Virus record (IMG/VR): IMGVR_UViG_2713896790_000007
DNA length: 18,937 bases
From: a virus
Taxonomy: Duplodnaviria > Heunggongvirae > Uroviricota > Caudoviricetes
Direction: 5' to 3' (one strand)
The position numbers were made by a program, and so were the translations under genes. Shown here in pieces: positions 2,438 to 16,785 of this stretch. Numbering within the stretch: position 1 is the stretch's first letter; the number at the start of each line of letters is the position of its first letter. The notes under the pieces were generated by a model. It saw only the letters and a list, made by a program, of their open reading frames with translations. It was not told where the DNA came from and made no database searches.

Positions 2438-3353
<916 letters not shown>

Positions 3354-3357
<4 letters not shown>

Positions 3358-8418: not shown

Positions 8419-8561
8419 TTACTCCTCAGGTTCGTAAGCTGTGAAGACAGCGACCTCCGTCTGNNNNNNNNNNNNNNNNNNNNNNNNNNNNNNNNNNNNN
8501 NNNNNNNNNNNNNTAAACAGATGACGATCAGGGCGATTAACATCGCCTTTTGCTGCTTCAT
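8419..8561 (-). CDS. hokD: Hok-family type I toxin HokD (RelF), interrupted by an assembly gap
   Basis: N-terminus MKQQKAMLIALIVICL at 8561..8514 and C-terminus QTEVAVFTAYEPEE* at 8463..8419; the middle lies in the N-run. Confidence 0.8.
8464..8513. other. Assembly gap, 50 N
   Basis: Run of n; about 21 hokD codons (63 nt) are missing, so 50 is a placeholder length. Confidence 0.95.
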
Positions 8562-9691: not shown

Positions 9692-10024
9692 ATGTCTGTC
9701 ACAATTCAGGGAAATACCTCAACCGTTATTTCAAACAACTCCGCCCCGGAAGGAACATCAGAAATAGCCAAAATCACAAGACAAATTCAGGTGCTGACTG
9801 AAAAGCTTGGGAAAATCTCATCGTAAGAGGGGATGACGACACAGCAGAAAAAAGAAATGGCTGCATTGGTACAGAAGCAAATTGAAAGCCTCTGGGCTCA
9901 ACTGGAGCAGTTGTTAAGGCAGCAGGCAGAGAAAAAGAATGAAGACGCGACAGTTCAGCCTGATAAAAAAGAAGAGAAAAAAGACGATACAAATACCGCT
10001 GGCACCATTGATATTTACGTCTAA
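9692..10024 (+). pseudogene. flxA: flxA interrupted by an in-frame TAA at 9824-9826
   Basis: 44 codons from ATG 9692, then TAA, then GAG GGG ATG and a 63-aa ORF in the same frame; total span equals the 110-aa FlxA recalled from K-12. Confidence 0.75.
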
Positions 10025-10460: not shown

Positions 10461-11774
10461 TCAATCTTTTTTATCGGGATCAGGCTTCTTTTTAGGTAAC
10501 TTCGGGGGCTTAACTTGCTGATGACTTTGCGTTCGGCGCGTAAGCCAGGGATGGTCAGCTTTAGGTTTAACATAGTATTTTGAGCGTAAATCAATACGGG
10601 CATTATCCACTCGTTCATGGACACTCTTTTCATCATCCAGTGGTATAGGCTCCGGGCCATCAACATACTTTTCCCAGCCCAGCGCTTTCCCGTCATACAG
10701 AACGTTAATTTCACCGTCAAAGTTCTCGCATACAGTAACAACCGAATGCCTAAGTCGATATCCCCGGCCCTCACTGCGTACCTGAAACGCACTGCTTTTG
10801 TACTGGAAAGTGAGATTTTTAGACAGAACGCGCTTCGCCTGTAGGCTGAAGATATAACCCAGTTCCTCTTCAGAATGGTGCACATCAAGATGAGCATTAT
10901 CAGTAGTACGAGGCGACGTAGCGAACCGGTTGTTATAGGCTTCAATAAAGGTCGGCAACCATGCATTTGCTGTTTCAATATCACTGATATTCTGAAGCCG
11001 CATTTCTTTGACCAGCCTGTCCTGTAGTGTCTGATTGGCGCGCTCTACCCGCCCTTTTGCCTGCGGGCTGTTGGCATGGATTGGCTCGATGCCCAGTGTC
11101 TTTATCGCACGAGTGAACTGGGTCAGCTCACCTTCCCGCTCTGGGTTATTTACCCTGAATATACTGTGTCTATCAGAGTAGAGAGCGAGCGGTACGCCAT
11201 GATCATTAAGGTAACCCCGGAGGGTTTCCATGTAAGCCCGGGTTGTTTCAGCAGGCACAAAACGCAACGCCATCAACGCACTGGTGGCATCATCAATGAA
11301 AACGATCAGTGTACATCTGGGGCCTCGATTTTCAAACCAGTCATGAGGTGAGCCATCAATCTGGATCAGTTCACCGTAAGATGGTCGTCGCATGCGGCGT
11401 TGATATATACGGGCAATTTTACGACGGCGTTCACGCCATAACCCCTCTTCTACCATCCACTTTCTGAGAGTTTCAACGGATAAAGATAAACCGTGTATCT
11501 CGCGCAATTTTTCGCACGCAAACGTAGGTCCAAAATCAGCGTAACGGCCTTTGAGGAGTGAAATTACTGTTGCTCTGAATTCAGTAGAAAAGGAATTATT
11601 AGGACGCTTTCCACGTCGGTGGGAAACCAGACCAGAAGGCCCTTCATTTCTATACCGTTGCACCAGACGTTTAACCTGCCGAATAGAAATGCCAATGCGT
11701 GCCGCAGCTTGTTCCTGAATAATCTGAAGTCGGTGGAGTTCCTTATGACTCATCGTAACAGTCTCTTTGATCAT
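10461..11774 (-). CDS. DDE (rve integrase-core) transposase with N-terminal HTH, 437 aa; IS481/ISNCY-like; element boundaries not resolved
   Basis: N-terminal HTH with ...GLVSHRRGKRPNN..., central ...ALYSDRHSIF... catalytic region, basic C-tail; inserted between flxA and the nin/replication block. Confidence 0.75.
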   Translation of the reverse strand: MIKETVTMSHKELHRLQIIQEQAAARIGISIRQVKRLVQRYRNEGPSGLVSHRRGKRPNNSFSTEFRATVISLLKGRYADFGPTFACEKLREIHGLSLSVETLRKWMVEEGLWRERRRKIARIYQRRMRRPSYGELIQIDGSPHDWFENRGPRCTLIVFIDDATSALMALRFVPAETTRAYMETLRGYLNDHGVPLALYSDRHSIFRVNNPEREGELTQFTRAIKTLGIEPIHANSPQAKGRVERANQTLQDRLVKEMRLQNISDIETANAWLPTFIEAYNNRFATSPRTTDNAHLDVHHSEEELGYIFSLQAKRVLSKNLTFQYKSSAFQVRSEGRGYRLRHSVVTVCENFDGEINVLYDGKALGWEKYVDGPEPIPLDDEKSVHERVDNARIDLRSKYYVKPKADHPWLTRRTQSHQQVKPPKLPKKKPDPDKKD

Positions 11775-12108
11775 GAAAAATCCCCCAGAGAATTGTCTGG
11801 GGACATTTTAGAATGGTTCAAAGGGGACATTACAGCTTGGTGTTAACAATAGCCTGCTTCTCCGTGCCTTTCGGCACGTAAGAGGCTAACCTACATGTGT
11901 CTAGCATGAAATTGGCCTCAGATTAATGTTAAGCGTCTTGCAGGACGCGTAATGTTAACTGGGGCTTTTCTCTATCTGCCGTTGGTGTCCATGCCCGAGG
12001 CAGATAGCCTCAAGCACCCGCAGTCATTCTACTTAACTAAGATTTCCCCGCAAACCGTTTTTGTCCAGCACAGTAAATATCCAACTAAACCAATGGAGTT
12101 CGCTGTAT

Positions 12109-12288: not shown

Positions 12289-12542
12289 TATTCCTCCTAC
12301 AATCAATGTGCAATTACATTTAAACACACCTCAATTTGGCCGGACATATAAATATCTAAACCAGAAAAAATCACTTACATAGCGTTACAAACTCTTTAGT
12401 CTAAAGGTTCATCGTAAAACATTCCCCATACTTATCAGTCCGTTCCGCGCCAGGTAGCTCATTGCCTTATCTGGCAACCTGTAATCAGGTTTCCGCTTTT
12501 TCAGTTGGCTGGTCGTTTAACCGACATAGTTAATCCATTAAT

Positions 12543-12830
12543 CTAGTTGCCGGATGTTGGTGGATTTTCGCGTTTTAGTTGTTCATAAAAGTGCACAGCT
12601 TTAACCAGTTCTTCTGATGTAACTGGGACTGGTGAGGCAGTGAATAAGGCCTGAATTTGATAGTTCGGCCTGTCGTTACAATCCTCTTTTTTCGGTACAT
12701 ATTTCCAGTCACCAGACCACTACTTCCCCTGAAAGTCCGTAACGCCTTTTTTCACGTAGCGATATCGCCATGCCACTGGTTTTGCTTGCCCCGCCGTTTC
12801 ATGCCCTTCCTGATAATTAATCTCGCTCAT
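12543..12830 (-). pseudogene. Small prophage ORF (about 95 codons) with one in-frame TAG at 12722-12720
   Basis: MSEINYQEGH...DFQGK-TAG-WSGDWKYVPKK...PPTSGN; no in-frame start after the TAG; ATGA overlap with the upstream ORF. Confidence 0.4.
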
Positions 12831-13018
12831 TCATCGCCCCACTCATCACAATATGCTTCGACCGGAGTTTTTCCCGCTTCATAGTCATCACGCTAGGATT
12901 CGACATCAGCAGCACTTCCACCGCGTAACTCACCATAGTCCATTAATAGTTCATCCCGCTCTTCAAAACTGATGTTATATTTAGCTGAACAAAAATCAGC
13001 CACTTTGTTCTTCCTCAT
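12827..13018 (-). pseudogene. Small prophage ORF (about 63 codons) with one in-frame TAG at 12895-12893
   Basis: MRKNKVADFCSAKYNISFEERDELLMDYGELRGGSAADVES-TAG-RDDYEAGKTPVEAYCDEWGDE; no in-frame start after the TAG. Confidence 0.4.
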
Positions 13019-13440
13019 CGTCTTTTATTTCGTGGTATGAGTAATTGCAGTAGTTAAAGAAAATTTCTTATGCTCCGTCATGAATTTCCTCAGGTGTTGC
13101 GTCATCGTCCACTTCGAATACATCCTCAAAATCTCCACCAGCTATTCCCGTTTCAATAATAATTTTGAACTTTCGCATTTCACTACCGCCCTTTCGGGCG
13201 GCCTCCTGATGTTCTGAGGGTGCAGAAATCCATCCGGTTAAGGATTAAATTTTATTTACAGAACTGAATTTAATTATTCAGATATACGTATCTGTAGCCT
13301 TACGAATCTACTCACTGGATGCCTCTTTCATAAAAATAATCCAGTGGGTTTTATCGTTTTTTCCCTGTTCGTTGACAGATAACAGGTTTTCTGTCTGTCA
13401 GTGCCAGAATCTGGCTTACCGGTATTTGCGTTTCATTCCA

Positions 13441-16735: not shown

Positions 16736-16785
16736 NNNNNNNNNNNNNNNNNNNNNNNNNNNNNNNNNNNNNNNNNNNNNNNNNN
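16736..16785. other. Assembly gap, 50 N
   Basis: Run of n; expected to hide the ydfA 3' end, ydfB and the ydfC 5' end. Confidence 0.95.

Follow-up and report, generated by a model that had tools for sequence, protein, structure and literature searches.

By sequence comparison, the window (the whole 18,937-nucleotide stretch of DNA that we analysed) is the long form of Qin, a cryptic lambdoid prophage of Escherichia coli. E. coli chromosomes carrying dicA, dicC, dicB, DicF, relBE, hokD, flxA, ydfU, ydfT and cspB/F/I proved to be colinear with the window at 99.9% identity, and it is this shared gene set together with the high identity that places the window in Qin. In the best-matching annotation the prophage begins with ynfO, ydfO, gnsB, cspI, the lysis genes, cspB and cspF, the antiterminator gene ydfT and ydfU. 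It continues with rem, hokD, relBE, ydfV, flxA, the remnant of an ISNCY transposase gene and the three-gene region that is the subject of this analysis. A methyltransferase gene, a DUF977 gene, an O-like gene, a ydaT-like gene, dicC, dicA, ydfABC, DicF, dicB and ydfD complete the order. An Rfam search of the window identified DicF and cspA-type leaders.

The same three-gene region, with the same three broken genes, is present in PhiR42_1, a deposited prophage genome of 48.7 kb from ECOR13 that also carries complete lambda-like structural genes. The Qin of K-12 MG1655 differs in that its annotation runs directly from dicC to ydfX and ydfW, which we take to be gene remnants. K-12 has lost the whole three-gene stretch by deletion, so that only long-form Qin shows the nonsense alleles described below. 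Decay of the same defective lambdoid prophage is evident in K-12 as well, where ydfE and insD7 are annotated pseudogenes.

Several peculiarities of the window itself were seen when it was compared with the closest genome. Two runs of 50 N (8464-8513 and 16736-16785) stand for 63 nt within hokD and for a 198-nt piece that takes in the end of ydfA and most of ydfB, respectively; they are therefore masks and represent no real sequence. At 2831/2832 the window lacks 108 nt that the closest genome has (positions 2832-2939 of the aligned locus). This loss takes the start of rzpQ and the final codons of the lysozyme gene rrrQ, leaves a 182-codon open reading frame at 2809-3357, and looks like a strain-specific lesion of the lysis cassette.

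Upstream of the three small early-region genes (Table 1) are the O-like replication, DUF977 and methyltransferase genes. The original prediction had described two translationally coupled frames here, ORF C and ORF D, each broken by a single in-frame amber codon. This two-gene picture was incomplete: the minus strand of 12400-13250 holds three small overlapping frames rather than two, and the frame upstream of ORF C, a gene of the DUF7167 family, is broken too, by an ochre codon, TAA, at 13070-13068 in place of AAA (Lys37). Both ambers were found where they had been placed, at 12895-12893 in ORF C, reading from ATG 13018, and at 12722-12720 in ORF D, where the amber is codon 37 counted from ATG 12830; the ATGA overlap between the ORF C stop and the ORF D start was likewise confirmed. 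The ORF C amber stands in place of TGG (Trp37), and the frame ends with TGA at 12829-12827. The start assigned to ORF C was wrong. Every intact relative starts at the position equivalent to 13003, with ATG where the window has GTG, and the ATG at 13018 is a change private to the window haplotype that lies inside the upstream DUF7167 gene.

Table 1. Genes, pseudogenes and gene overlaps of the three-gene region, and flxA, in window coordinates.
Feature	Coordinates	Strand	Basis or detail	Length when intact
DUF7167-family gene, now pseudogene	12996..13178	-	PGAP; alignment with intact copies; Pfam/phrog match	60 codons
Overlap of ORF C start and DUF7167 stop	12996..13003	-	eight bases GTGGCTGA; intact relatives ATGGCTGA	
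ORF C, pseudogene	12827..13003	-	alignments; phrog_519	58 codons
ATGA overlap of ORF C stop and ORF D start	12827..12830	-	sequence read	
ORF D, pseudogene	12409..12830	-	PGAP; alignments; tblastn; phrog_660	104-156 codons
flxA with ochre codon	9692..10024	+	GAA -> TAA (E45*) at 9824-9826	

Intact copies of all three genes are common in other prophages and phages, where gene order and overlaps (ATGGCTGA and ATGA) are kept. They include those of ATCC 25922 (60, 58 and 129 aa; WP_001224662.1, WP_000753058.1 and WP_001556926.1), strain 127, phage vB_EcoS-640R1 and, for the first two genes of the triplet, phage ArgO145. The proteins of the intact triplet are 81-84% identical to the conceptual translations of ORF C and ORF D from the window, and all three frames are open in the relatives. 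When the window was aligned with ATCC 25922 at the DNA level, its TAA faced AAA, the TAG of ORF C faced TGG and the TAG of ORF D faced CCG.

We extended this comparison to codon 37 of 160 further loci drawn from viral contigs, in addition to the annotated records. In this sample, which was picked by similarity to two DUF7167 alleles and whose proportions are not population frequencies, the DUF7167 gene had AAA 122 times and TAA 45 times; ORF C had TGG 118 times, TAG 43 times and TAA once; and ORF D, counting in-frame alleles only, had TAG (35), CCG (27), ATG (16), CAG (9), CTG (7) and TCG (1). In most of the sampled prophages ORF C and ORF D are intact. Alignment to intact homologues, the check proposed with the original prediction, thus shows both ambers standing at sense codons, namely TGG in ORF C and CCG, CAG, CTG, ATG or TCG in ORF D; of these last, CAG and TCG are one step away from TAG. 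Among the homologues compared, none used these stops as native gene ends followed by separate downstream genes.

The intact proteins fall into known families, all of them with no assigned function. An intact DUF7167 relative matched Pfam PF23768 (E 7.9e-15; 55.1 bits against a cut-off of 24.4) and phrog_1997 (E 9e-31), an intact ORF C relative matched phrog_519 (E 2e-22) and an intact ORF D relative matched phrog_660 (E 6.8e-45), the last two matches also being significant. Intact ORF C and ORF D gave no match to a Pfam family, and none of the three intact proteins gave an NCBIfam, PADLOC or PDB sequence match. In the literature, DUF7167 was mentioned in no paper, and nothing specific was found on nonsense alleles of Qin.

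That two of the three genes are pseudogenes is already known from NCBI PGAP flags. The DNA of ATCC 8739 is 100% identical to window 12400-13250 and carries two PGAP pseudogenes there: ECOLC_RS26670, which is the upstream gene, and ECOLC_RS26235, which is ORF D. PGAP labels the former "DUF7167 family protein, internal stop", in ATCC 8739 as in KH_005, and the latter (window 12830-12409) "hypothetical protein; frameshifted; internal stop"; the codons that were replaced are left unstated. Over ORF C, the PGAP annotation of Qin-type records holds no feature, and ORF C is thus an unannotated pseudogene in the RefSeq records of Qin-carrying strains.

Between the window copy of the DUF7167 gene and the intact allele closest to it, 6 of 183 bases differ, the stop among them. 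Among intact alleles of this gene pN/pS is about 0.06. Immediately upstream, at 13176-13207 on the minus strand, an AGGAGG precedes a GC-rich hairpin (CCGCCC GAAA GGGCGG), after which comes the DUF7167 ATG; relatives keep this arrangement. The hairpin may draw a distant Shine-Dalgarno sequence near to the start codon; its folding z-score is just -1.6. When the early region was searched for a structured RNA in place of genes, no Rfam family reached its gathering score in 12400-13250, and a scan for promoters and terminators gave background level only.

In ORF C, the private changes include loss of the ATG start and of the conserved Trp16. Eight private non-synonymous changes fall within the N-terminal 36 codons and none in the C-terminal part; the conserved 3' part belongs to a stretch that is almost invariant across all lineages, as is expected of a shared recombination segment. 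The codon change itself suggests how the amber may have arisen. Where the window has TCC TAG, 12 of 33 distinct intact alleles of ORF C have GCC TGG and so contain CCTGG. Since Dcm methylation makes CCTGG to CCTAG the expected product of 5-methylcytosine deamination on the complementary strand, the ORF C amber looks like a deamination at a Dcm site, the ancestral base before TGG being inferred. Amber hotspots at Dcm sites (CCWGG) in lacI were reportedly described by Coulondre, Miller and co-workers in 1978. The likeness extends to ORF C only: the ambers of ORF D, and that of phage vB_EcoM-606R7 (CATGG), lie outside Dcm sites.

In phage vB_EcoM-606R7 (positions 1048-1234 of its locus), Trp37 of ORF C is likewise replaced by TAG, on another haplotype in which the DUF7167 gene and ORF D are intact. 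An intact sister allele of this haplotype exists in viral contigs, which suggests that the codon was struck independently in 606R7. Furthermore, ORF C is broken by an 8-nt deletion in FDAARGOS_943 and is frameshifted in one IMG/VR viral contig.

ORF D has been damaged more heavily than the original prediction supposed. We mapped its lesions by DNA alignment and by tblastn of intact relatives of 132 and 156 aa. The triplet that had been taken as the end of the gene, 12545-12543, is a second premature amber, at which FDAARGOS_943 has CAG and the longer relatives have Gln. The ancestral frame ran on to 12409 through a frameshift located within about 12504-12477. The 132-aa relative, which also has Gln at the second amber, matches window 12477-12412 with its final 22 residues, in another frame. 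In addition, the window copy lacks the conserved VETGAWKDAVDWVLKEA segment. The ORF D ends annotated in phage records are not native gene ends. A run of A at 12752-12747 has six bases in the window and seven or eight in other lineages; the A7 and A8 lineages keep the same TAG bases, but out of frame. The A8 form leaves an open 85-codon frame that is annotated as a protein in phage records, though it is a frameshifted ORF D. The codon-37 amber of ORF D is also present in lineages in which the DUF7167 gene and ORF C are intact, which indicates that it is older than the other stops or has been moved by recombination.

Intact homologues of ORF D were also seen in lytic phages of the Vequintavirinae, Avunavirus 18-1-2 and Av-05, at 76-82% DNA identity. 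The family is therefore common to temperate and virulent coliphages.

The original prediction had further stated that neither downstream half has an in-frame start. For ORF C this holds, there being no in-frame ATG, GTG or TTG after the amber. For ORF D it holds for ATG only: a single in-frame GTG is present, at 12596, 17 codons ahead of the next stop. We considered split genes with separate downstream products and rejected them, as restart codons are lacking.

Two neighbouring ambers raise the possibility that the stops are read through, whether by a suppressor tRNA such as glnV/supE or in a programmed manner, so that full-length products of ORF C and ORF D are made conditionally. The third TAG further down ORF D and the protein-level conservation of the downstream part of ORF C are in keeping with this idea. 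The latter, however, is a segment that hardly varies in any lineage, and several observations make readthrough extremely unlikely. In the upstream DUF7167 gene the stop is TAA, a codon that amber suppressors leave unread, and ORF D would remain frameshifted and short of a segment even if its ambers were translated. Within the window there is no tRNA gene, and TAG is the normal terminator of intact rzpQ and ydfC in the same prophage. The functional-looking homologues have sense codons at these positions, with the stops confined to the broken haplotypes and not conserved among homologues. Moreover, the stop alleles occur in hundreds of independent natural isolates, so that a suppressor allele is not needed to explain them. 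Reassignment of TAG as a sense codon was rejected in turn, given that TAG terminates rzpQ and ydfC and that in-frame TAGs occur only in these broken genes. A possible signal of recoding or suppression is thereby cleared.

We next asked how widely the broken genes are distributed. The 851-base stretch 12400-13250 is present at at least 99% identity in 506 complete E. coli genomes and has a match at some level in 2,530 of 5,426. In some 45 Qin-type loci that we read, the stops always occur together. Haplotypes identical to the window apart from a restored sense codon were absent: exact matches were found in none of 505 genomes for ORF C with TGG and none of 676 for the DUF7167 gene with AAA, and for ORF D with CAG there was no full-length exact match among 1,157. 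The stop alleles are carried by many independent natural isolates, for example ATCC 8739, W, IAI39 and O55:H7. The block of three dead genes has thus long been fixed in roughly a tenth of sequenced E. coli. The chance that the stops are sequencing or assembly errors of a single record is practically nil, since the identical sequence recurs in hundreds of assemblies made by different methods and in PhiR42_1; for the three early-region genes a read error is excluded.

We consider it highly probable (roughly 0.9) that the three genes are ordinary pseudogenes, in which point mutations of the Qin lineage became fixed and have been inherited with the prophage, and that the stops are read as stops, with no recoding. 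The original suggestion of pseudogenisation in a decaying prophage is borne out by the sense codons in intact homologues, by the additional lesions of ORF D and by the broken upstream gene. Window-private changes in the DUF7167 gene and ORF C comprise 12 non-synonymous changes, 5 synonymous changes and 2 stops; this ratio is close to neutral, and we read the window copy as unconstrained. The downstream parts are not separately translatable. On this pseudogene reading, the DUF7167 gene lost its frame by AAA to TAA and ORF C by TGG to TAG. ORF D went from a sense codon to TAG, in a single step if the ancestor had CAG or TCG, and also suffered the second change of CAG to TAG, the frameshift and the loss of the internal segment. 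The three genes would presumably be silent in the repressed prophage, and as they overlap, a stop in one would be expected to lower translation of the next. With silent genes and coupled stops, constraint would be gone and mutations would be free to pile up.

A different account of the same losses is that they were positively selected: the intact small proteins might harm the lysogen, either by being toxic when expression is leaky or by triggering host defence, and loss alleles would have been swept to fixation. The repeated independent loss of ORF C could reflect such selection rather than neutral decay, as its lesions lie on different haplotypes (the Qin TAG, the 606R7 TAG, the FDAARGOS_943 deletion and the IMG/VR frameshift). 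Likewise, the lesions of ORF D are of several kinds (TAG, A7, A8 and deletions) across roughly 1150 E. coli genomes, and three neighbouring genes are all broken. We nevertheless think that selected loss is unlikely. Intact ORF C and ORF D prevail in the sampled prophages and occur in the lytic Avunavirus phages, the genes should be silent in a cryptic prophage repressed by DicA, the private non-synonymous and synonymous changes stand in a ratio compatible with neutrality, and there was no match to defence-system models.

The original prediction had called two amber codons in neighbouring genes unusual. We listed every nonsense mutation that a single step could produce in the repaired genes, with transitions weighted twofold. 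TAG makes up 0.30 of the possible nonsense mutations in ORF C and 0.36-0.46 in ORF D, and the probability that both are amber by chance is about 0.1-0.14, which is unremarkable.

The positions of the stops are less easily accommodated. The first stops of the DUF7167 gene, ORF C and ORF D each fall at codon 37, and the four stops at 13070, 12895, 12722 and 12545 on the minus strand are separated by 175, 173 and 177 nt. In post hoc calculations with a random nonsense model, three first stops would share a codon index with P 0.7-2e-4 and three intervals would agree within 4 nt with P 4e-4. The shared codon and the regular spacing are thus unlikely under random nonsense mutation and count against random nonsense decay. 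By eye, the contexts of the four stops have no shared motif, and the stops arose at different times. Diverged tandem paralogues would explain equal stop positions, and we rejected this origin for the three genes on hhalign probabilities below 1%. A DNA-deaminase signature was rejected as well: of the 19 changes private to the window in the DUF7167 gene and ORF C, G:C to A:T accounts for only 3, and strand coordination is absent among the three ambers.

If the placement were not random, two sources could be envisaged: selection for a set of N-terminal peptides, each some 36 residues long, or a mutational or recombinational process that acts on this operon at intervals of about 175 nt. We hold such non-randomness to be very improbable. 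The first of these, in which the truncated products are functional as three peptides of about 36 residues and the codon-37 stops were selected, appears to us a very unlikely explanation on its own evidence. The common codon and the fixation of the stops in a near-invariant sequence in more than 500 genomes would fit it, but this near-invariance belongs to the whole Qin region and not to these frames. The three proteins are unrelated, and the private changes of ORF C, which include the lost start codon and Trp16, are concentrated N-terminally, whereas selection for an N-terminal peptide would predict the reverse. With no mechanism found, we treat the regular placement of the stops as coincidence, alongside the pseudogene reading.

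The original prediction had grouped the two ambers with a TAA in flxA. The flxA ochre is real, and its link to the ambers did not stand, since the allele is private to the source strain: it was found in none of the 1196 complete E. coli records that hold the flxA stretch. Judged on these comparisons, the flxA change is probably a separate, recent event, or possibly an error in the source strain. The allele would be usable as a strain-specific marker.

Between flxA and the three-gene region, the ISNCY transposase frame (10461-11774, minus strand) is open over 437 codons in the window, and its in-frame C-terminal end is the annotated gene ydfW. PGAP annotates the transposase as partial and ydfW as a separate protein; the window and the closest genome differ there by one residue (N for D). 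An Rfam match to the sok antitoxin RNA (104 bits) lies at 11848-12019 on the minus strand, adjoining the IS remnant; the annotated hokD is about 3.3 kb away. Where relatives have no IS-flxA-relBE block, hokD directly follows ORF D, which suggests that the block was inserted at or beside a hok/sok locus.
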